Virus record (IMG/VR): IMGVR_UViG_3300049004_000016
Span: 32,001 to 96,000 of that record
DNA: 64,000 bases
From: a virus
Lineage: Duplodnaviria; Caudoviricetes
Reading direction: 5' to 3' (one strand)
Made by a program: the position numbers and the translations under genes
Shown: positions 21,950-33,899 of the stretch, one piece after another
Position numbering within the stretch: the stretch's first letter is position 1
Layout: the number at the start of each line of letters is the position of its first letter
Notes under the pieces: generated by a model
The model's input: only the letters and a program-made list of their open reading frames with translations
What the model was told of the DNA's origin: nothing
Databases searched by the model: none

Positions 21950-22258
21950 TCAGTTGGGGTAGCTGGTGAAGTTCACCGCGTTGGCCGGTGCGCCGGTCAC
22001 GTCGCCACAAATCTTCTCGGTCGGCAAGCTGGCCTTGACCTCATCCCAGCACCCCAACCCACTCACCGGCCGGTGCTGCCCAATCGCGAACAAGTGCCCC
22101 ACCGTGGCCACGATCCCGTCCCACAGTCCCCGCACCAGCTCCGTCGCGAAGCTCACCACCGCCGGACCGTAAGCCAAGATCAACGCCCCCGCGATGGTGG
22201 TCACAACCACAGGCAGTACGTAGGTGGTGGCGTTCCGGCGAATGGTGTTGGCGTTCAT
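21950..22258 (-). CDS. Hypothetical membrane protein
   Basis: Own GTAAC-N18-GAT promoter, GACACG leader and GGGAG RBS. Confidence 0.65.
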   Translation of the reverse strand: MNANTIRRNATTYVLPVVVTTIAGALILAYGPAVVSFATELVRGLWDGIVATVGHLFAIGQHRPVSGLGCWDEVKASLPTEKICGDVTGAPANAVNFTSYPN

Positions 22259-22305
22259 GACTGGCTCCCTAGTTCGTGTCGGCCGGTGTTGGCCTCTCAC
22301 TCCCT

Positions 22306-22334
22306 ATATCGCCCGCCCGACCTGCGGTGTTACA
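22306..22334 (-). promoter_or_regulatory. GTAAC-N18-GATA promoter-like motif (copy 5)
   Basis: Reverse strand TGTAAC accgcaggtcgggcgggc GATATA. Confidence 0.65.
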
Positions 22335-22632
22335 CATCCCCGAAAACGGTCCGGCCCGGTGACCGCAACGCCGCCAACCGCACCGCCAACGCGTGCTTCT
22401 CCACCCGCGTCAACGCATCCACCGGGTCCTCCAGAGACCCCCACACCACATCCCGCATCACCCGCTCCGCCCGCCACACATCCACACCCTGCACCAGCAA
22501 CGACACCTCCAACCGCCCCAACATCCCCCGCGCCCACTTCACCTGGGTGTGAAACAACGGGTCACGCATATAAGCCTCACCCGCCCCAAACACCGTCACC
22601 AAGTACTCCTCGATCAACCTCTCCGCGATCAC
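22330..22632 (-). CDS. Hypothetical protein
   Basis: GAGGAGG RBS before GTG. Confidence 0.55.
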   Translation of the reverse strand: MIAERLIEEYLVTVFGAGEAYMRDPLFHTQVKWARGMLGRLEVSLLVQGVDVWRAERVMRDVVWGSLEDPVDALTRVEKHALAVRLAALRSPGRTVFGDV

Positions 22633-22697
22633 CCGAACCTCCTCGCGTCAACAGCACCGACACCACAGCTCACCACGGCATGACCAGGAGGTTCGCC

Positions 22698-23321
22698 ATG
22701 AGCACCACGCGCGTGAAAAACGGGCACCGGTTGTGCGCCGCGAAGGCCAAACACGGGCGTGGTTTGTGCGGTGGCTGGGCCCTCAAAGGGTCGGATTATT
22801 GCGATGACCATTTGATCAACCCCGAGGCTAGGAGGAGGGCTGCTGTGCGCGCTGAGTTGGAGCGGTGGGGTCTCGGTGACACCACCATTGATCCTGGTGA
22901 GGTGCTGTTGCGCCTGGTCAGCCAGTCAGCGAACCGCGCGGAGTTCTTGTCGGGGTTGCTGGAGGAGCAGTACCGGCGTGTGGAGTCCGGTGAGTCGACT
23001 ACGACGTTGCCGGCGCGCCTGTCGGTGTTCGTTGGTCGGACGTTCGCCCTGAACCGCAATGGTGAGCCGGTGCCGGTCGCGGAGGCGATCCGTGCCCTGG
23101 TGCAGCTTGAGGGTGAGGAGCGGGATCGGTGCGCGAACTTCGCCGCTAAGGCCGTGGCCGCTGGTTTGGCTGAGCGTCAGGTGCGTCTCGCCGAGCGGCA
23201 GGGGGAGATGATGGCTGAGGTCCTTCGGGCAGTGCTCGGCGATGAGGCGCTGGGTTTGTCTGAGGCGCAGGTCGCGATGGTGCCGGTGTTGCTGAGGGAG
23301 CACCTGGCGATCGCGTCTTGA
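22698..23321 (+). CDS. Putative terminase small subunit-like protein with N-terminal Zn-finger
   Basis: C.A.....C...A..G...C..H followed by helical ERDR..AGLAERQVRLAE. AGGAGG RBS. Confidence 0.55.
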   Translation: MSTTRVKNGHRLCAAKAKHGRGLCGGWALKGSDYCDDHLINPEARRRAAVRAELERWGLGDTTIDPGEVLLRLVSQSANRAEFLSGLLEEQYRRVESGESTTTLPARLSVFVGRTFALNRNGEPVPVAEAIRALVQLEGEERDRCANFAAKAVAAGLAERQVRLAERQGEMMAEVLRAVLGDEALGLSEAQVAMVPVLLREHLAIAS

Positions 23322-23358
23322 TGGTTGCCCACCGGGGCTAGCCGTTAGAACGGGCCAC

Positions 23359-26300
23359 CTAGCTGCTGGTGGACAGTTGCACCGCACCGTGGGTCTTGAT
23401 CAGGTCGATCAGTTCCTTGGTCTGGTCGTACAACGGCCCGGACGCCGCCACGGCGAGGACACCACGCAAGAACGGCAGCATGGTCTTGTCGATGCTGATC
23501 CAGTCGGAGCTCAACGACCCGTCGTGGTTGAACACTTCACGGGCGATCACGTACTTGAGTTGGTCGCCGAGCCGGTTGCCTTCCGGGACGTTGGGCACTG
23601 GCCGCCAGTACAGGTTGGTGCTCATCGGTGGTTCTCCCCGGCCACGCACCTAGCGTTGGTGCACACCCCGGTGTCGGGCAGCGGTTGTCGGCACACGCAG
23701 CAGTCCACACCGAGTAGCCCCGGCAACCCCAGGGACGTCAGGTACCGGTGGCGTTCGGTCGCGTAGGAGTTGAGCCGCCGGGCGGTGCCAGCGGTGCCTT
23801 CGGTGCTGGTGTCGTTCACAGTGCCTGCCCCGTCTGCCGTCCGAATCCAACCCGGCGGTGCCGGCCAAGGTGGTCCAGGCCAACCCGTAGCGCACCGGGC
23901 TGCCCACCGGGGGACCAGTCGTTGGCGCCGCACAACGGCACCCGGCATGACCAGTACCAGGTGCCGGAGCTTGGGTCTTTGTACACGGTCAGTGGCCGCA
24001 CGGTGGTCGTTCCTCTTCCTGGCCGGTGCCGAAGTCCACGGGGCCCATGATGATGCTGTCGGGGTCCACGCCATACAACTCGGCGAGACGCCGCGTGCAC
24101 AGTGTCATCAGCGCCGCCAGGTTGCGTTGCGCCCCGGCGTCAACGTTGACGGTGCACACGGTCTCACCGCCCCGGTCGTTCACCGATGATGCACTCACAG
24201 CCACGGCAGTCCCAGATCAGCAGCCCACCGAACACCCACCGGATGTGGCCTAGCCACGGGTGCCCACAGGTGCAGTGGAGCGGTTGGCTGGTCATCGTTG
24301 ACGCCCTGCTGGTCGTAGGCATATGTCGAGGATGGCGAACGAGTCGCGCCGGACTAGGACACCGTCGCCATCATCGTTGATAGCCACCAGCGCCCACTGG
24401 TCACGGCCGACCAGACACGGCACCTTGACCCGGAATGCCTCTCTGGTGGCGTCGTCCGCGAACGTGGTTGTGATGTGGAAAGACCCGGAGAACCCCAGGT
24501 CAGCGAACGCCTTGGGCACCTCAATGGTCACGACAACCCGCTCCCCGTCCACACCCTGGGTAGCGGTTCCGGCCCGTCATAGCTCAGGCACGGGCACGGC
24601 ACCCACTCATGACCGTTGCGGCTGCCGTTCGACCAGTAGTGGGGGCGCTCGATTTGCGCCGCGCACTTCTTCCCTTCCTCGTGGATGCCATACCCGTGGG
24701 TGCAGGAACACACTGCGACCTCTGGGGTTACTGATGTCTGCGTCCTCCTGGTCTGACGGCCGGTGACCCATCCCGCTAGGGCTAGGGCGCCACCTACACC
24801 GAGGGTGATCGGATCGAACATGGTCAGCCCTTCCCCACCCGCTCAGCCAGCCGGGCAGCGAACTGGTCGAACGTCTCACCGTCGCTGTGCCGGTCATCAT
24901 CGGTGACCACGATCCGCAGGAAGCTGGTTTCCTTGCCCGTGGTCCACCCGATGCCGTAGAACTGCTCCGCCAACACCAGCAGCACATCAGCCGTGCCCGG
25001 TGTGGCCTCGGTCGCTGGCACGTACCGGACACCATCGATGACCACCACCGGCCGCTTCACTGCCATGGCCGTTTCCTTCGCTCTAGCCAAGGTCGCGGCG
25101 TCGCGCTCAGCGTCGGCCTGTGGTTGCATGGCGCGGTCCAGGTCGCGTAACTCTTCCGGGACCTGATGGTCTGTCACTGGTCAGCCCTCCGTTGGTTGGT
25201 GGCCTAGAACAGCGGTGCCTTGACGTACTCATTACCGTCGCGCACCAAACGGTCACGACTGGTCGCGATCCGCCCGTTGCGCCGCTCAAACGCCGCCAAC
25301 GCAGCGACGGTCCCACCGGGGTCTTCCTCATAGTCCCTGGCAGGGTCGGTGGGGAGGAGGAAGTTAAGCAGTCTCATGATCGAAGTCTCCTTAGAATAGT
25401 GGTGTCTTCTCATCCGGGGGTGCGAAGACGCCCGGTCAAGGTGAGGGGGCTGCGGCCATCTTTTGTTTCCACCCCTGGGGCGGAGGGGCGGCACGACTGA
25501 TTCCCGCTACATTCGGGCTCTCCGCAGTACCCGCAACTGGAATTGGAATTGCTGCCCCCGGATGGCGTAAACGGCCACATGGTCATTCCCTTCCTTCGGT
25601 TTGGGTTCGTAGTTCCTGACAACGTGCCTGGTCATGGACCCTGACAACGATGTTGCAGACCCCGTCCTCAACGTCACCGGATACGACCTCCACCCACCGC
25701 TTCCACGTATCAGCCGGGTCGCCATCACGGGTGGATTCCAGGACCACGATCCGGGTACCGCAGCACTCACACTGCTGGTGGAGGCCGTCTGACCACGACC
25801 CCCACACCAGCAGTGACCGGCCGCGCGCGTCTGCCCCCGCCCATCTGTCTTGGAGGAACTGCCACGCGGCTGCGGTGATCATTAGTCCTTCATCAAGTCC
25901 GCGTCGGACGTCCTGGACATCAAATCGTGGACGCCTTCCAGGGCTGCCCGGTTTTCGTCGGTCACCACGATTTCCTGCTCATCTGCCATTGCCTTCTCCT
26001 TTCCTGTCATCCATCTCTGGGCCTGCTCACACCGGGTGCACCGGTTGCAGGTGTCTATGCCGGTCGGTTCGTTCTCCAGGTGGTCATCGATGGTGATGAA
26101 CGACCCGCACACGGTCCGTCCCACCTCGGTGTTCTCCTGGTTACGTGGCCGGTGCCGGTCGTCACGGAGTAGGTGGCTGGTCAGCCATCGTTGCTTCTTC
26201 ACCCACCGCCCGCCCATCACCGGCCGCCGGATTCTGGTCGCGGGTGGACACGGTCAACGGACACCAGGCACGGCTCGAACTGGATCTCCACCAGCGGGTT

Positions 26301-26638
26301 GGTCGGTGTCGAGACCTTGGTGACGGTGGCGAACCCGAAAGGCGCGGTGTCGTCGTAGCGGTCTTCCGAGATCCACACCCGGTCGCCGGGCTTGAGCTGG
26401 CTCATGATCGGTTGCCGATCGACTGGACCAGCTTGACGTGGCTGACGCTCATACCGACGCGCCTGGCTACAGCGGTAGGCCCGTCGTCGGCTAGCAGCTT
26501 GAGGATCGCAGCGTCGCGTATGCGGTGTGCCTCGGTCCGCTTCTCGGCGATCTGTTCGTCGTACTGCTTGACTGCGGCCACCAGCTCCGCTGGATCGTCC
26601 AGTTCCCTGATCTTGTCAAGGGTCCACGGTGCGGTCAT
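23359..26638 (-). other. Inverted block of about 14 small coupled genes (e.g. 23359-23625, 23622-23819, 23816-24001, 23989-24159, 24164-24295, 24292-24552, 24528-24821, 24824-25177, 25204-25377, 25583-25882, 26217-26405)
   Basis: Chain of overlapping start/stop codons on the minus strand, many with CxxC or CxC motifs. Confidence 0.6.
26402..26638 (-). CDS. Small HTH transcriptional regulator heading the inverted block
   Basis: IRDAAI..L....GPTAVARRVGMSVSHV. Confidence 0.7.
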   Translation of the reverse strand: MTAPWTLDKIRELDDPAELVAAVKQYDEQIAEKRTEAHRIRDAAILKLLADDGPTAVARRVGMSVSHVKLVQSIGNRS

Positions 26639-26788
26639 CCGCTAACCATATACCCGATAGTCGGCTAACTCAACAACCGCCAGTGAGCTGGGCAAACGCC
26701 TCTTACCGGTGCCGGTCTCCCACGGGCCGGTGACCGCACGACGTAACGTGCACGCCGACACCGTCCATGCCCAACTTTGGAGGCCACA

Positions 26789-26964: not shown

Positions 26965-27576
26965 ATGCCAGCACCACCAACACTGGAGATCACCTACTAC
27001 CCGGTGACCGATCTCCGCCCGTACTACCGCAACGCCCACAAGGGCAACACCGGCCGCATCCGTGGATCGTTGCGTGACCACCGCCAGTACAAAACGATCA
27101 CCGTCAATAAAGGAACCCACACCGGGCGCCCCAACGAGGTCCTGTGCGGCAACCACACCCTGGACGCCGCCGCCGCTGAGGGCTGGCCGACGCTGGGCGC
27201 GGTCACCATCGACGTCAGTGACGACGAAGCCGCCCAGATCAACCTGATCGACAACCCCCGCGCCGGCAACCCCCAGGACCTCGACTACGACGAACGCCTG
27301 CTGCTGGAGTTGCTGACCGGGCTGCCCAGTTTGGACGGCACCGGGTATGACCCCCACGACATCGCGAACCTGGCCGCGCTGCTCGACGAACCAGCGTGGG
27401 GCACCGGTGGTGGCGGGTCCGGTGGTGACCACGGTGAACCGGACGACACCCAGTTCTGGCCCCAGATCAAAATGCGTGTCCCCCCGGTGGTGTTCGACCA
27501 GTGGCGGACCCTGATCGACGGCTACGACGGCAAAGACGACATCGAGAAGCTGACCGCGATGCTGGCCGACCGGTGA
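26965..27576 (+). CDS. ParB/Srx-like N-terminal domain protein
   Basis: L.PY.RN..KG....I..SL....QY..I.V...VLCGNHT..AA...DN. Confidence 0.8.
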   Translation: MPAPPTLEITYYPVTDLRPYYRNAHKGNTGRIRGSLRDHRQYKTITVNKGTHTGRPNEVLCGNHTLDAAAAEGWPTLGAVTIDVSDDEAAQINLIDNPRAGNPQDLDYDERLLLELLTGLPSLDGTGYDPHDIANLAALLDEPAWGTGGGGSGGDHGEPDDTQFWPQIKMRVPPVVFDQWRTLIDGYDGKDDIEKLTAMLADR

Positions 27577-28646
27577 CGACACCCGTCCTGCCGGTGATGA
27601 ACATGCTGTGGTCCTACGTCTACGCCCGCAAGACCACACACCTGGACACGTTCCTCGGTGGGTTAGCGCCGCAACGGATGCGCGTGTTCGCTGACTCCGG
27701 TGCCCACTCCGCCCGCACCCTCGGTTTGCACCTCGACATTGACGACTACGGGCAGTGGCTGACCAAATGGCATGAGTGGTTCACGATCTACTGCAACCTC
27801 GACGTCATCGGTGGCCCCGAAGGCACCTGGCGTAACCAAATGCACCTGGAGCAACGCTTCAACCTCCACCCCATGCCGGTATTCCACACCGGTGAGGACT
27901 TCGACGTCTTGGAGCGCTACATCGACGCCGGGTACACCTACATCGCACTCGGGAAGCTGCTGGGCAACAGCGTCAAGGCCCTGCAACCGTGGCTGGCGAA
28001 AGCGTTCCGGGTCGCTGACGGGCGCGCGGTGTTCCACGGGTTCGGGATGACGGTGTGGCGGCTGCTGCTGGAGTTCCCGTTCTACTCCGTGGACTCCAGC
28101 TCCTGGGGTGCCGGCGTCAGGTACGGCAACATGCGGTTGTTCCACCGTGGCCGCTGGGTCCACATCCGGTTGCGTGACCTCGATGACGTCAAAGCCAACC
28201 GTGGTGTCCTCGACGCCTACCAGATCCCTTACCGGTCGTTGACTGGTGACGGGTATGACCGGGACATGGTCGCCGGTGCCTGTGCTGCCGCTATGTACCG
28301 CGCGGCGCGGTGGGTCGCGGACGTCCACGGGCATGTGGAGCTGCCACCCGGTAAGGGGTACCCGCCACCGAACCAGACGGAGAAGGTCCTGCCGGCCCAG
28401 GGTGACCCCGGTTTGCACACCTACCTCGCCGACACCGCCACCAAGGGCCACCAGCTCAACGCCGCCGGTGCTACGGGGTTCCACACCTACCTCGCGGACA
28501 CGCTGGCGATCGGGCATCAGCGCAACGCCCTGGGCGCTACGGGGTTCCACACGTATTTGGCGACGACTGGGGTGGTGGAGCACACCAGGCATTCCAGTGG
28601 GATGCCCCGCGCGGCCGACCCTGATGAGGTGGTGGCCCCGTGCTGA
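27573..28646 (+). CDS. dpdA: DpdA-like DNA 7-deazaguanine transglycosylase (TGT fold)
   Basis: FADSGAHS, NLDVIG, PVFHTGE, YIALG, HGFG, YSVDSSSW. Clustered with queD/queE/folE. Confidence 0.8.
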   Translation: MTTPVLPVMNMLWSYVYARKTTHLDTFLGGLAPQRMRVFADSGAHSARTLGLHLDIDDYGQWLTKWHEWFTIYCNLDVIGGPEGTWRNQMHLEQRFNLHPMPVFHTGEDFDVLERYIDAGYTYIALGKLLGNSVKALQPWLAKAFRVADGRAVFHGFGMTVWRLLLEFPFYSVDSSSWGAGVRYGNMRLFHRGRWVHIRLRDLDDVKANRGVLDAYQIPYRSLTGDGYDRDMVAGACAAAMYRAARWVADVHGHVELPPGKGYPPPNQTEKVLPAQGDPGLHTYLADTATKGHQLNAAGATGFHTYLADTLAIGHQRNALGATGFHTYLATTGVVEHTRHSSGMPRAADPDEVVAPC

Positions 28647-29035
28647 TCCGCACTATCACGGTGGGACCTTTCCGGGTGTATTTCGGCAACGTCAACGTCC
28701 CGATGGGCATCCGGGGCCATTACCACACCGCTGACGTGTCGCTGGTGTATTCGGTGGGCCCATCCCGCCACGGGTACCCCTCGTTCAAAACCACGAACGA
28801 CGCCATCCGTGACCAGTTGCAGAAGCTGACCAAAGGCATATTCCGGGACGCCACCAACGAGGACGTCGCTGACCGTTTATTCCATGCGTTCGATGGGTGG
28901 GTGGCACCGGAATGGGAACCGTGGGGTGGTGACTACAAACTGGCCGCTGTCCACCTCGACGTGATGGGTGTGTTGGATGACATCGGCCATGACGATTCCA
29001 CCACCAGGTACACCACGGCGAGAGGCCCCGAGTGA
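28640..29035 (+). CDS. Divergent QueD-like T-fold protein (candidate DpdL-type enzyme)
   Basis: GHYH metal motif and ATNEDVA resemble QueD HGH and PTTENIA. Coupled between dpdA and queD. Confidence 0.5.
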   Translation: MLIRTITVGPFRVYFGNVNVPMGIRGHYHTADVSLVYSVGPSRHGYPSFKTTNDAIRDQLQKLTKGIFRDATNEDVADRLFHAFDGWVAPEWEPWGGDYKLAAVHLDVMGVLDDIGHDDSTTRYTTARGPE

Positions 29036-29445
29036 GCGCGTTCATAGCGGTACGGCACAACATTGAGGTAGCACACCGGCTGCACCGGCTACCAGGGAAG
29101 TGCGAGAACATCCACGGCCACTCGATGTGGGTCCAGTTGGAGCTCACCGGGCAGCTCGATCACCGTGGCCTGCTCGATGGCCTGGACTTCGGTGCGGTCA
29201 AACGCGAATACCGCAAGCACCTGGACACCAAGTACGACCACCGGCTGCTGCTGGATGTGGATGACCCGCTGACCTCGGTGGGTGCGGTGAAGCTACCGGG
29301 GTTGCGGCCCACGGCCGGGCAGCCGACCACGGAGAACATCGCCCGGTGGGTCGGTGAGTGGGCGGTGGAGAACTTCCCGTCCGCTACCGGTGGCACGGTC
29401 ACGGTCCATGAGACCCACGTCAACCAGGCCGGGTGGTTGTGGTGA
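29032..29445 (+). CDS. queD: 6-carboxy-5,6,7,8-tetrahydropterin synthase
   Basis: AHRL, CENIHGHS, DFG, DH, PTTENIA, ET. Confidence 0.92.
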   Translation: MSAFIAVRHNIEVAHRLHRLPGKCENIHGHSMWVQLELTGQLDHRGLLDGLDFGAVKREYRKHLDTKYDHRLLLDVDDPLTSVGAVKLPGLRPTAGQPTTENIARWVGEWAVENFPSATGGTVTVHETHVNQAGWLW

Positions 29446-30161
29446 CCGACGACCGGCTGCCGATCTCGGAGATCTTCGGACCGACGATCCAGGGTGAAGG
29501 ACCGGCCGCCGGGCAGTGCGCGACGTTCGTTCGGTTTATGGGCTGCAACCTGTCCTGCTCGTGGTGCGACACCGCATACACCTGGGACGGTGACCGGTTC
29601 GGTTTACGCGTCACCACCAATTGGTGGACACCAACCCAGATCCTGACCGAGGTAGCCAACAGATCAGACACCGGCATCGTTGTCGTCACCGGTGGTGAGC
29701 CACTGCTACGCCAAGACCACCCCGCATGGTCGGAGCTGCTGGCCGGGTTGATGGATGGCGGGTGGCGCCTGCACATCGAAACCAACGGCACCCTGGTCCC
29801 CACTGCGGAGACCTTGGCCGCCGCTGAGTTGATCTGCGTATCCCCGAAACTGGCCAACGCCGGGGAGCACCGGGGCCACCAGAACCCCACACCGCGCGCG
29901 GAGTTCGTGGACCTCGCCCACGCCCACCAATGCCTGCACCTCAAGGTCGTGTGCCAGGACGAGGGTGATGTGGAGCGCGCCGCACGCATGGCTCTGGCCC
30001 TGCGTTGGCCCTGGGGCCGTGTGTGGGTCATGCCGGAAGGCACAACCACGGAGGTCCTGAACCGCCGCTGGCCGGTGATCGCCAGTGCAGCCGCCCGACT
30101 GGGCATCAACGCAACCCACCGACTGCACGTCCTGGCGTGGGGTGACGAAAGGGGCCACTAG
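29442..30161 (+). CDS. queE: 7-carboxy-7-deazaguanine synthase (radical SAM)
   Basis: ISEIFGPTIQGEG, FVRFMGCNLSCSWCDT, TGGEP, IETNG, SPK, RLH. Confidence 0.95.
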   Translation: MTDDRLPISEIFGPTIQGEGPAAGQCATFVRFMGCNLSCSWCDTAYTWDGDRFGLRVTTNWWTPTQILTEVANRSDTGIVVVTGGEPLLRQDHPAWSELLAGLMDGGWRLHIETNGTLVPTAETLAAAELICVSPKLANAGEHRGHQNPTPRAEFVDLAHAHQCLHLKVVCQDEGDVERAARMALALRWPWGRVWVMPEGTTTEVLNRRWPVIASAAARLGINATHRLHVLAWGDERGH

Positions 30162-30721
30162 TGGACGCCGAGCACTACGCGCGGAAGCTGATCGAGGCCC
30201 TGGACATCCCGGAAACGGAATCCACCAAGGACACACCCCGACGCCTGGTGGCTGCGCTCGAGGAAATGACCGCCGGTGTCCGCTTGGACCCCGCCCGGCA
30301 CCTGGCGGTGACGTTCCCCGCTGAGTCCCCCGATCCCGGCATGATCGTGGTGACCGGTATCCCGTTCATCAGCCTGTGTGAGCACCACATGCTCCCGTTC
30401 ACCGGGACCGCGACCGTGGGGTACCTGCCGGCGCCCGCTGCCCGCATCGTGGGGTTGTCGAAGCTGGCGCGGGTGGTCCAGGAGTACGCCGCCCGCCCGC
30501 AGGTCCAGGAACGCTTGGGTGACCTGATCACCACAGCGATCACCACCAACCTGGAGACGCTGGGTGCCGCGTGCGTGATCCGCGCCCACCACTCCTGCCT
30601 GACGTTGCGTGGTGCCCGTGCGACTGGCGCGAGCATGGTCACGTCCCACCTGTCGGGGCGGTTCCGTGATGAGCCGACTGTGCGCGCGGAGTTCCTGGCG
30701 CTGGCGGTGAACACCAACTAG
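30161..30721 (+). CDS. folE: GTP cyclohydrolase I
   Basis: TPRR, SLCEHHMLPF, GLSKLAR, QVQERL, H.C..LRG, RAEFL. Confidence 0.95.
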   Translation: MDAEHYARKLIEALDIPETESTKDTPRRLVAALEEMTAGVRLDPARHLAVTFPAESPDPGMIVVTGIPFISLCEHHMLPFTGTATVGYLPAPAARIVGLSKLARVVQEYAARPQVQERLGDLITTAITTNLETLGAACVIRAHHSCLTLRGARATGASMVTSHLSGRFRDEPTVRAEFLALAVNTN

Positions 30722-30735
30722 CTGGGGGTAGGCCG

Positions 30736-32250
30736 GTGACAGCGACGATTACCGGCCTTGACCTCGCCGCGTGGTCCAGTGCCTTGGACCGTTTGGACCC
30801 ACCACAGATCGATGTGTTCGGGAAGCTGGAATACGTCCCGACACCCAAACAGCAAATGTTCCATGACGCTACTGAGTTCGATGTGCTGTTCGGTGGGTCC
30901 CTCGGTGGTGGCAAGACCCGCGCGTTGACCATGGAAGCGATTAGGGCGTGCATCCGGTATCCCGGTATCCGGGTCGGGGCGTTTCGGAGAACCTACGGTG
31001 AGCTGAAAGAGTCGCTGCTGGCTGAGCTGATGCAAATCAACTACGCGGCAGCGGTGCGCGCGAAGTGGAACGGGTCGGATTACGAGCTGCGGTTCCCCAA
31101 CGGCTCGGTGATCATGTTCCGGTATGCGGAGTCCATGCAAGACGCCACCCGGCGTCAAGGTGGCCAGTACCAGTTGCTGATCTTCGATGAGCGGACGTTG
31201 ACACCCCCGGATGTAGTGTCCTTCCTGGAGTCCCGGCTGCGATCCGGCCGCAAGTCCATCCCGGTGCTCGGTATCAGATCCAGCGCGAACCCCGGTGGAC
31301 CTGGGCACGGCCGGGTGCGCGTGAAGTACGTCGATGCCACCAACTACGGCACCAAAGTCGTCCACGACGAACGCGGCCGGACCATCCGGTTCATCCCGTC
31401 ACGCATGGAAGACAACCCCCACCTGAACCCCGAGTACGAGAACGACCTCCTGGCGCTGCCTGAGGTGTTGCGGCGTGCCCTGCGTGAGGGCGACTGGGGT
31501 GTGTTCTCCGGTCAGGTGTTCTCCGAGTTGTCCCGTGACCGCCATGTGGTGGCACCGATCAACCTGCCGTTGTCGTGGCTGCGGTACAACGGCGTGGACT
31601 GGGGTTACGCCAAACCGTGGGCTGTGCTGTGGGCTGCCGTTGATGAGGACGGCCGGGTGTGGATCTACCGGGAGCTGTACGCCACCGGTGTGGGGGAAGC
31701 GGAGCAGGCCAGACGCATCCTGGCCGCTGAGGCCGACGATGAGAAAGTCACGGTCAGGTACGCCGACGACGCCATGTGGGCGACCCGTGGTGACGCCAAA
31801 CCGATCTCCGACATTTACGCCGAGAACGGTGTCCACCTCACGGAGGCCGGCAAGGGCGCCGGGTCGCGGATCATCGGCTGGCAACGCATCCACTCCTACC
31901 TGGACAACGGGCCCGCGTGCCCCCACCACCGTGCCCTGGGGTGGACCGAGTGCCCGATGCTCCACATTTTCGACACGGTGGAGAACCTGTGGCGGGAGCT
32001 GCGGGACCTCCCACACGCCACCAAAGGTGACCCTGAGGACGCGGACACCACCGCATCCGATCACGCCGCTGACGGGCTGCGTTACCTGCTGATCAACCTG
32101 GGGACCGCGCCACGGTTCCATTTCCCGCCCACCCAACCGGAGGTGACGGTGCTTGACCCCGCCGCCACCGGGCCACGTCCACCGCAGCCACTACCGACGA
32201 TGTACGGCGGGTTCCCCGTCGCGACTGAGGGGACGTCGATATGGGGCTGA
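30736..32250 (+). CDS. terL: Terminase large subunit
   Basis: Walker A GGSLGGGKT, Walker B IFDE, ANPGGPGH, DNPHL, VDWG, DHAADGLRY. Confidence 0.93.
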   Translation: MTATITGLDLAAWSSALDRLDPPQIDVFGKLEYVPTPKQQMFHDATEFDVLFGGSLGGGKTRALTMEAIRACIRYPGIRVGAFRRTYGELKESLLAELMQINYAAAVRAKWNGSDYELRFPNGSVIMFRYAESMQDATRRQGGQYQLLIFDERTLTPPDVVSFLESRLRSGRKSIPVLGIRSSANPGGPGHGRVRVKYVDATNYGTKVVHDERGRTIRFIPSRMEDNPHLNPEYENDLLALPEVLRRALREGDWGVFSGQVFSELSRDRHVVAPINLPLSWLRYNGVDWGYAKPWAVLWAAVDEDGRVWIYRELYATGVGEAEQARRILAAEADDEKVTVRYADDAMWATRGDAKPISDIYAENGVHLTEAGKGAGSRIIGWQRIHSYLDNGPACPHHRALGWTECPMLHIFDTVENLWRELRDLPHATKGDPEDADTTASDHAADGLRYLLINLGTAPRFHFPPTQPEVTVLDPAATGPRPPQPLPTMYGGFPVATEGTSIWG

Positions 32251-33899
32251 GGTCGTTCGTGCGGGAGGTGTTCGGTCGCAGCGAGGTGCAGGAGAAGCCC
32301 GCCGCTACGGCACCGGTCCTGGAGCCACCAACGCCCAAGCAGGCCCGCCGCGCTGGTTTCGAGTACGGCATCCCACTGGGCAACGGTGGTGGTGGCCTGG
32401 ATGTGTCCCGTCAGGTGTCGGCTGGTGCGGAACGCCAACAGACCCTGGCGCAACTCCACCAGCTCTACATGACCTGCGACTGGGTTTCCAGCTCCGTGGA
32501 TGTGGTGGCGCGGACGGTCACTGCCGGCGGGTTGCAGGTGGTGTCAGAGTCCGACGTCCCGGAAGGTGAGCAACCGGCTGATCCCCCGGAGGTCCAGCGC
32601 CTCAAGCGGTTGATGAAGTTCTGCAACCCGCGTGAGGACATGATCCAGTTGCTGCGCAACGTGGTCACGGACCTGGAGTTGTTCGGGGACGCCTACCTGG
32701 AGATCGTGGTTCTGCTGGGTGAGCCGATCGCCCTGTACACGCTCGACGCCACCACGATGACGGTGCTGTCCGATGAGCACGGGGAGGTCAACGGCTACCA
32801 CCAGGACGTTGACGGAGTCCGCACGGCCACGTTCGGCCCCGACGAGGTGATCCACTTCTCGTTGGACGCGCCCCGTGGTGGTTTGTACGGTGTCGGACCG
32901 GCGCAGAAGGTGCTGTTCCCGGCTACTGCGTGGCTGTTCGCCATGGCAACCCTCAAGGAATGCTTCCGCCGGGGTGACCCCCCGCGTATCCACGTTGACC
33001 TGGGTCATTTCCAGGACGGTGACGTGCAGCGGTGGCGTGAGCAGTACATGGTCAACAACCTGGGGCCCAAAGCTGTCGGCACCCCCATCTTGACCACTGG
33101 TGGTGGCGGGGTTCAGGTCCTCGACCCCCACAAGGTCGGGGATTACCTGGAGGCGTGCCGCAGCCTGCGGGATGAGATCGTTTCCGCGTTCGGTGTGCCC
33201 CCCGCGAAGGTCGGCATCATTGAGACCGGCAACCTCGGTGGTGGCACTGGTGAGGCGCAAGACAAAACATTCCGCATCAACACCATTATCCCCATTACCG
33301 CGATCATTCTGGAGAAACTGAATTTCCACCTGCTACAGGTCGGTTTCAAAATAACCAATTACGTCCTGGAGTTCAAAGAGATCGACTACCGGGATTCAGA
33401 AGTGGTGGAGAAGATCCGTGACATGCGTTTGCGGAATGGCTCCTACACCCTGAACCGGTACCGGGATGAGATTGGTGAACCACCGGTTGATGGTGGTGAT
33501 GATGCTGTCCTGGTCGACCGCACCCACATCGTGGCGTGGGTCGATATGGAAGCGATGTCCAAGGCGACCATCGCGACCGCTGTGGCGCCGTTGGTCACGG
33601 CCGGTGTCAACGGGTATGTGCCTGGTGTGCCGGACGCGGAGGAACCGGAACCACCGGCGGCACTGGCTGGTGTCCACCCTGCCGCGCTTGCTGACCCCAA
33701 GGCAGCACCGGGTGGCGCGAAGGACGCGACCCAGGGCAAGGCCCCACCGGAAGGCAAGGACGGCCAAGGCAAGGCACCGAAGGAAACACTGGATGTGCGT
33801 GATCAGCGCCGGTTGTCAGAGTCGTGGCAGCGGGCCTACCGTGCTCGCCGCGCCCAGGCGTTGCGTGAGCTACCTGACCGGGAGTTGATCGACGCATGA
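32241..33899 (+). CDS. Portal protein
   Basis: Follows terL. GDAYLEI, EVIHF, EIVSAFGVPP, TLN.YR..G.PP..GGD. Confidence 0.9.
   Translation: MGLRSFVREVFGRSEVQEKPAATAPVLEPPTPKQARRAGFEYGIPLGNGGGGLDVSRQVSAGAERQQTLAQLHQLYMTCDWVSSSVDVVARTVTAGGLQVVSESDVPEGEQPADPPEVQRLKRLMKFCNPREDMIQLLRNVVTDLELFGDAYLEIVVLLGEPIALYTLDATTMTVLSDEHGEVNGYHQDVDGVRTATFGPDEVIHFSLDAPRGGLYGVGPAQKVLFPATAWLFAMATLKECFRRGDPPRIHVDLGHFQDGDVQRWREQYMVNNLGPKAVGTPILTTGGGGVQVLDPHKVGDYLEACRSLRDEIVSAFGVPPAKVGIIETGNLGGGTGEAQDKTFRINTIIPITAIILEKLNFHLLQVGFKITNYVLEFKEIDYRDSEVVEKIRDMRLRNGSYTLNRYRDEIGEPPVDGGDDAVLVDRTHIVAWVDMEAMSKATIATAVAPLVTAGVNGYVPGVPDAEEPEPPAALAGVHPAALADPKAAPGGAKDATQGKAPPEGKDGQGKAPKETLDVRDQRRLSESWQRAYRARRAQALRELPDRELIDA

Follow-up and report, generated by a model that had tools for sequence, protein, structure and literature searches.

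Which base does a phage place in its DNA when it carries a DpdA transglycosylase and the genes for making 7-carboxy-7-deazaguanine (CDG) without a gene for QueC? 7-Deazaguanine bases shield phage DNA from restriction enzymes, and the base that is installed is set by the tailoring enzyme and by the specificity of DpdA. The question is raised by a window of 64,000 nucleotides, with a GC content of around 65%, which corresponds to bases 32001-96000 of the IMG/VR virus record IMGVR_UViG_3300049004_000016, a complete genome of 115,285 bp with direct terminal repeats. Six same-strand genes at 26965-30721 of this window encode a ParB-like protein, a DpdA-type DNA guanine transglycosylase, a protein of 131 amino acids, QueD, QueE, and FolE, each gene overlapping or abutting the next according to the list of open reading frames (ORFs) and a reading of the sequence. 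The module probably swaps guanine in the phage DNA for a 7-deazaguanine and would be a variant in which QueC is replaced by a small T-fold enzyme, the 131-amino-acid protein. An earlier note on this DNA had treated the gene for that protein as a side detail; it is instead the key feature of the locus, a conserved T-fold gene in the slot of queC.

The last three genes of the module, all on the plus strand, should turn GTP into CDG, since the predicted enzymes are intact and retain their catalytic motifs. FolE, the GTP cyclohydrolase I (30161-30721, 186 amino acids), matches PF01227 at 2.3e-53 and NF006826 at 177 bits, which is over the family cut-off, and has CEHH at residue 73. QueD, the 6-carboxytetrahydropterin synthase (29032-29445, 137 amino acids), matches PF01242 at 7.5e-23 and, under the family cut-off, TIGR03367 at 2e-19; its CENIHGH sequence, of the CxxxHGH type, lies at residue 24. 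QueE, the radical SAM enzyme 7-carboxy-7-deazaguanine synthase (29433-30161, 242 amino acids), matches PHROG 2076 at 1e-63, PF04055 at 3e-11 and, again under the family cut-off, TIGR03365 at 7.2e-30, and carries CX3CX2C at residue 38. 

The enzyme that would complete CDG to preQ0 is missing from the genome. In the complete record, PF06508 gave no QueC candidate, a hidden Markov model (HMM) made from four actinophage QueCs found no match in any of the six frames, and tblastn with the QueC of Rosebush was negative; PF14489, for QueF, was likewise without a match, and the only PF01242 match, sought as a sign of a second QueD, was the QueD gene itself. The absence of queC and queF, which had been claimed for the window, is thereby confirmed and extended to all 115,285 bp.

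A T-fold protein in the slot of QueC

The gene at 28640-29035 (plus strand), between those for DpdA and QueD, encodes the 131-amino-acid protein, which has no match in Pfam (even at an E value of 10), NCBIfam, PHROGs, or PADLOC, and the profiles of its family gave chance matches only in an HMM search of PDB sequences. An AlphaFold (AF2) model built with 40 homologues has a pLDDT of 92.8 and the order beta-beta-alpha-alpha-beta-beta. When this model was compared to known structures by Foldseek and VIA-align, it matched the PTPS 2dj6 (Z 11.0, root-mean-square deviation (rmsd) 2.9, 100 residues aligned) and the E. coli QueD 3qn0 (Z 9.9, rmsd 3.1, 103 aligned); further matches were SCO6650 (Z 10.2), QueD2 (Z 10.0), and QueF-L (Z 9.5), and then FolX, FolB, and FolE. 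On the strength of the model, the protein is confidently assigned to the T-fold, nearest to PTPS/QueD. The ESM Atlas gave NdhM, probably by chance, with FolB and PTPS as weak leads only.

The earlier note had called this protein an extra QueD-like paralogue, which is right for its fold (Z 10-11 to PTPS/QueD) and unsupported by its sequence, there being neither a Pfam match nor a significant alignment of its family with the QueD profile (hhalign probability of 0.4%). That same global alignment does, however, put the HxH of the T-fold protein on the HGH of QueD and its T-N-E on the T-T-E of QueD, so that in both proteins HxH opens strand 2 and T-N/T-E opens helix 2 in the same register. The T-fold protein differs from QueD/PTPS in having no catalytic cysteine and no AHRL-type first histidine, and a genuine QueD is encoded by the next gene.

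In a set of 1.84 billion proteins, the family amounts to 87 representatives at 50% identity. It conserves H27, H29, P47, E74, D113, H117, and Y124, and its motifs are HxH, TNE, and GH(x)D, with a third histidine in the beta3-beta4 loop and Asn-x-Asn on strand 1; around the HxH, the window protein has G-I-R-G-H-Y-H-T-A and the family consensus is L-x-G-H-S/Y-H. This pattern of conserved histidine, glutamate, and aspartate would suit a metal-binding or acid-base site. Because the protein contains no cysteine, the chemistry of QueD, QueF, and QueF-L is excluded: as a second QueD it is ruled out by the missing cysteine, the lack of a PF01242 match, and the lack of a CxxxHGH motif, and as QueF or QueF-L by the absence of a cysteine for the thioimide intermediate. 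Its identification as DpdL, the QueD-like protein of phage phiST, was rejected on profile comparisons that were not significant. The family appears to be undescribed, no paper on it in actinophages having been found, and its homologues in the closest isolated phages, the Bipper group, are labelled hypothetical in SEA-PHAGES records.

None of 50,697 phage records was matched by the cluster in a megablast search. Among isolated phages, those nearest to this one are five cluster-Y-type mycobacteriophages (Bipper, Typha, Cracklewink, Hilltopfarm, and Nadezda), in which the order (gp1-gp9) is ParB-like, small ORF, DpdA, gp4, QueD, QueE, FolE, 'RNaseE', and terminase, again without QueC. The gp4 protein of Bipper (141 amino acids) is 55% identical to the T-fold protein, and its gp3 is 57% identical to the window DpdA (tblastn). 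The genomes of this group are 76-78 kb long with the module at the left end, unlike the 115-kb genome with direct terminal repeats described here, and they have two extra ORFs compared to the window, namely the small one between the ParB-like gene and DpdA and the 'RNaseE' ORF before the terminase. Hutinet et al. stated in 2019 that QueC is all that Bipper lacks and that CDG might be the base it carries (PMC6884629).

A second group of phages, made up of the Mycobacterium phage Rosebush, the Rhodococcus phage Finch, the Gordonia phage Sour, and the Microbacterium phage Nicole72, has a syntenic ParB-DpdA-QueC-QueD-QueE-FolE module with QueC exactly where the window has the T-fold gene. The terminase gene directly follows FolE in Rosebush, Sour, and Nicole72, whereas other genes stand there in Finch. 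Rosebush DNA contains dPreQ0 at 28% of G (PMC6884629).

Searches of viral and genome collections yielded 41 loci with the T-fold gene, nearly all with the order ParB-DpdA-T-fold-QueD-QueE-FolE, from genera that include Streptomyces, Kibdelosporangium, Lentzea, Actinocrispum, Nonomuraea, Spongiactinospora, and Gordonia. Six further loci, where the T-fold protein has 39-48% identity, have other gene orders and still contain DpdA, QueD, QueE, and FolE. Together, these 41 + 6 loci come to about 40 distinct ones after the removal of duplicates, all in actinobacterial phages or prophages and with three gene orders among them. Not one of the 41 + 6 had a QueC match, PF06508 was absent from all eight of the T-fold virus genomes searched whole, and, conversely, none of the four QueC-type loci searched contained the T-fold gene. 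P0252 and P0296, two distant family members that were each used singly as a query, led to no related loci. Given the Bipper group and these loci, the claim that such a module would be unusual for an actinophage does not stand, the more so as the lack of QueC in Bipper had been stated in 2019.

Several of these modules have peculiarities of their own. At two loci (L032:8688-10367 and L039:6693-8366), the queE match falls into two tblastn pieces around 840 bp apart, which suggests an insertion inside queE, perhaps an intein or a homing endonuclease. The locus from Streptomyces hazeniae (L042) has the T-fold protein, QueD, and FolE without a match to QueE, and two others (L021 and L023) are without a tblastn match to QueD; the cause may be decay of the modules or a divergence of the genes beyond detection. 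In Nicole72, the QueC-like protein (L059:2744-4775), at 462 amino acids, has around double the normal length, as if it were a fusion, and two unannotated ORFs (75 and 140 amino acids) with no PHROG match lie between it and QueD.

DpdA and its base pocket

The transglycosylase gene (27573-28646, plus strand) starts either at GTG 27573, which overlaps the stop codon of the ParB-like gene, or at ATG 27597. Its product is recognised by PHROGs only (PHROG 887 at 1.2e-49), with no match in Pfam or NCBIfam, nor in the PDB by phmmer. It can be aligned by tblastn with the DpdA of phage 9g (gp03) at 36% identity over residues 2-180 (E 1e-23), and the insertion of preQ0 by the 9g enzyme has been demonstrated experimentally; a PSI-BLAST search started from 9g DpdA, by comparison, is reported not to retrieve DpdA2. 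Judged by this homology to a tested enzyme, the window protein is a DpdA1 of the 9g/Rosebush type. 

An AF2 model of the protein based on 32 relatives has a pLDDT of 80, and its residues 1-246 match both the arcTGT 1iq8 (Z 15.1, rmsd 2.9, 234 aligned) and the bacterial DpdA 7ui4 (Z 14.6, rmsd 3.3, 238 aligned). The predicted fold is, then, a TGT-like TIM barrel. Three aspartates, D33 (in DSGA), D69 (LDV), and D166 (VDSS), do not vary across an alignment of 38 DpdAs that includes those of 9g and Rosebush; they would be the general acid/base, the base-binding residue, and the nucleophile, respectively, if they are mapped to Asp95, Asp130, and Asp256 of 7ui4 by motif order and spacing rather than by superposition.

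In the DpdA of S. Montevideo, Phe99 sandwiches the base and stands four residues after Asp95 (PMC10164549). The spacing of D33 and H37 in the window DpdA is the same, and the hydrophobic stacking residue equivalent to Phe99 is therefore lacking here, its place being taken by a histidine. In DpdAs linked to the T-fold protein, this position is His in 28 of 32, Tyr in three, and Trp in one, whereas in all six of the QueC-linked DpdAs it is Phe, following DSGA; the Rosebush-type DpdA, which is around 35% identical to that of the window, thus has Phe and not His after this motif. That the switch from Phe to His in the base pocket reflects an altered substrate is to be taken as a lead only.

Outside the TGT-like barrel, the C-terminal 75 or so amino acids of DpdA consist of three tandem repeats of 22 amino acids, each with HTYLA. 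The repeats, encoded at 28410-28620 of the window (residues ~270-340 counted from ATG 27597), have an AF2 confidence of less than 50. Five of the Streptomyces prophage and IMG/VR loci (L012, L018, L020, L039, and L040) have two DpdA paralogues in tandem, with 47-50% identity to the window DpdA, together with two or three ParB-like genes 5' of the T-fold gene; such paralogues may have two target specificities.

Which base is installed?

In the mechanism proposed here, FolE, QueD, and QueE would supply CDG, the T-fold protein would bind it at a putative His/His/His + Glu site (H27, H29, H117, and E74) and convert it, and the product would be exchanged for G in DNA by DpdA, perhaps with the help of the ParB-like protein. 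By analogy with phages that have been tested, the purpose would be protection from host restriction. A CDG-derived base other than preQ0/G+, as the earlier note predicted, is the most economical outcome because there is no QueC in the genome, the catalytic motifs of the CDG enzymes are kept, a DpdA1-type transglycosylase is present, and the hosts mostly lack QueC; exactly which base it is lies beyond computation. It is likely, at any rate, that this base is not preQ0, and the T-fold protein is probably the enzyme that determines it. As for its reaction, the tentative first choice, held at somewhat under an even chance, would be the decarboxylation of CDG to 7-deazaguanine (dDG in DNA), as has been proposed for DpdL. 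This choice is made because there is no cofactor-dependent partner enzyme in the cluster and because a similar cysteine-less, QueD-shaped protein accompanies dDG in phiST, a QueC-less phage with 100% dDG and no dCDG, for which DpdL, a QueD-like T-fold protein, was proposed as the CDG decarboxylase (PMC10516641).

The two systems have in common FolE, QueD, and QueE without QueC, a DpdA, and a small cysteine-less HxH protein of QueD shape; they differ in that the hosts here are Actinobacteria. For the comparison, the DpdL of Acidovorax phage ACP17 (ASD50405) was located by the published LxxxHRHxF motif, its own sequence being LGSPHRHLF, and 3,246 DpdL homologues were found, of which 32 were put in the comparison alignment and 120 in an HMM. 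HMMER finds no Pfam PTPS match for ASD50405 itself (L007:11833-12216), even with the E value relaxed to 10; more than 3,200 proteins belong to its family when clustered at 90%, and none of those listed has a precomputed Pfam domain. 

Several points weigh against the mechanism proposed above. Comparisons of the T-fold family with DpdL family profiles gave hhalign probabilities of 0.05-1.7%, and neither the genome nor any of the 47 T-fold loci gave a match at E<=1 to the DpdL HMM of 120 sequences; because these profile comparisons are negative, the psiBLAST retrieval of DpdL homologues by Cui et al. (2023) is unlikely to have reached Bipper gp4. The T-fold protein has GxxxHYH instead of the DpdL signature LxxxHRHxF, and Asn-x-Asn instead of the histidine on strand 1, and its partner transglycosylase is DpdA1-like, whereas that of the DpdL/phiST system is a DpdA3. 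Function is not shown by a shared fold, and CDG decarboxylation is undemonstrated even for DpdL, the heterologous tests having failed (PMC10516641). The contrast between Phe and His in DpdA, moreover, rests on six QueC-linked sequences without phylogenetic correction and on a mapping of the site by motif spacing. Finally, the DpdA2 of VH7D inserts CDG directly in an E. coli queC mutant, so that dCDG needs no extra enzyme (PMC10516641).

This last observation leads to the possibility that DpdA inserts CDG itself, giving dCDG, and that the T-fold protein is a CDG carrier, a non-catalytic partner of QueD in a hetero-oligomer, or unrelated. CDG is the base that Hutinet (2019) proposed for Bipper (PMC6884629), dCDG occurs naturally in a Sulfolobus virus (PMC10516641), a histidine in place of the stacking phenylalanine beside the base could suit a carboxylate, and a partnership with QueD would fit the translational coupling of the two genes. 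However, the T-fold gene has been kept in around 40 loci despite the shuffling of gene order, with a His/Glu/Asp set typical of an active site, and it sits in the slot of a CDG-consuming enzyme; in addition, no dCDG was found in the QueC-less phiST, and CDG insertion by the DpdA that was tested is around 40-fold less efficient (PMC10516641). Direct insertion of CDG is the main rival and, on balance, rather unlikely. Another possibility, and one to be considered quite improbable, is that the T-fold protein makes a base other than 7-deazaguanine, CDG, or the eight known 7-deazaguanines, or has an earlier pterin intermediate as its substrate, and that DpdA inserts this new base. The family is indeed distinct by sequence from QueD, DpdL, QueF, and FolB, its motif set differs (with the Asn-x-Asn on strand 1 and the third histidine in the beta3-beta4 loop), and the altered pocket belongs to another DpdA subfamily than that of the dDG phages. 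The six coupled genes, though, include no ATP-grasp enzyme, methyltransferase, amidotransferase, or glycosyltransferase, and, from CDG alone, few reactions beyond decarboxylation are open to a metal-binding T-fold of 131 amino acids.

Might the phage nevertheless end up with dPreQ0 because QueC or some other PP-loop ATPase of the host converts its CDG, in which case the T-fold protein would be irrelevant? A search of the rest of the genome and of hosts for queC, which the earlier note had advised, found none in the genome and a full-length QueC in two of the ten bacterial genomes with T-fold prophages, a Lentzea and a Spongiactinospora; the window's own phage is uncultured. In the first five host genomes, those without QueC showed only N-terminal PP-loop matches of 22-25 bits, and in the other five, for which the threshold was E <= 1e-6, those without QueC showed no match at all. 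Because eight of the ten prophage hosts lack QueC, as does Mycobacterium smegmatis, the host of Bipper, which has no queuosine genes (PMC6884629), completion of CDG to preQ0 by the host is unlikely as a general rule. Since, furthermore, the preQ0-making phages of the same hosts bring their own QueC, and the T-fold protein and QueC have never been found together, a dPreQ0 made in this way is very improbable. It is barely credible that the cluster does not modify DNA, whether through being inactive or through serving tRNA or nucleotide metabolism. Such a case could be argued from mycobacteriophage Orion, which has a DpdA and yet no modification (PMC6884629); Orion, however, is without biosynthetic genes, which here are all intact, coupled, and conserved, the catalytic aspartates of DpdA are kept, and Rosebush, with a homologous module, has the above-mentioned fraction of its G replaced.

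What was already known is that Bipper lacks QueC (2019) and that a QueD-like protein might decarboxylate CDG (2023, PMC10516641); what is new is a compact DpdA1 module, recurrent in actinophages, in which a T-fold protein of unrelated sequence takes the place of QueC. This protein is a second candidate, unrelated in sequence to the first, for the still unproven CDG-consuming step, and its occurrence together with a changed residue in the DpdA pocket makes a testable pair for shifts in the specificity of DNA transglycosylases. A bolder proposal, which at present seems doubtful, is that the protein is the founding member of a new family of T-fold enzymes, that this family replaced QueC in actinophage DpdA1 modules without being related in sequence to DpdL, and that, together with the Phe-to-His change in DpdA, it leads to the installation of a base unreported for actinophages and possibly outside the eight known derivatives. 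The question can be tested in cultured relatives, Bipper and Typha, which grow on M. smegmatis mc2 155.

The ParB-like gene and the surroundings of the module

The first gene of the module (26965-27576, plus strand) encodes a ParB-like protein of 203 amino acids with a ParB/Srx fold, which matches PHROG 723 at 4.9e-39 and has no match in Pfam, NCBIfam, or PADLOC, the DpdB model of the last included. A gene of this kind lies directly 5' of DpdA in nearly all the related loci, often in two or three copies, and it is the neighbour of DpdA in actinophage modules of the QueC type and of the T-fold type alike (around 40 loci). In bacteria, DpdA needs DpdB, a ParB-like ATPase (PMC10164549). By analogy, the ParB-like protein is a possible functional counterpart of DpdB and may help DpdA. 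The pairing of a TGT-fold transglycosylase with a ParB-like protein resembles the core of the bacterial Dpd system of S. Montevideo (PMC10164549); unlike that system, the module matched no PADLOC Dpd model and contains no DpdC or DpdD-K genes, and, unlike DpdB, the ParB-like protein is 203 amino acids long with no NTPase motif established.

Upstream of the module, the adjoining ORFs at 22224-26645 (126-365 amino acids) have no PHROG function: that at 22224-23321 belongs to PHROG 3678, a family of unknown function, and those at 23377-26645 have no PHROG match. Within the module, a reading of the junctions bears out the description of six coupled genes that end 14 nt before terL. The T-fold gene and QueD overlap by GTGA, and so do the ParB-like gene and DpdA when GTG 27573 is taken as the start of DpdA; DpdA overlaps the T-fold gene by 7 nt, QueD overlaps QueE by 13 nt, and QueE overlaps FolE by 1 nt. 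The 14-nt gap between FolE and terL carries a G-rich ribosome-binding site. The large terminase gene, terL, follows at 30736-32250 on the plus strand (PF03237 at 4.9e-10), and after it comes the portal gene at 32241-33899 (PF04860 at 1.3e-26).

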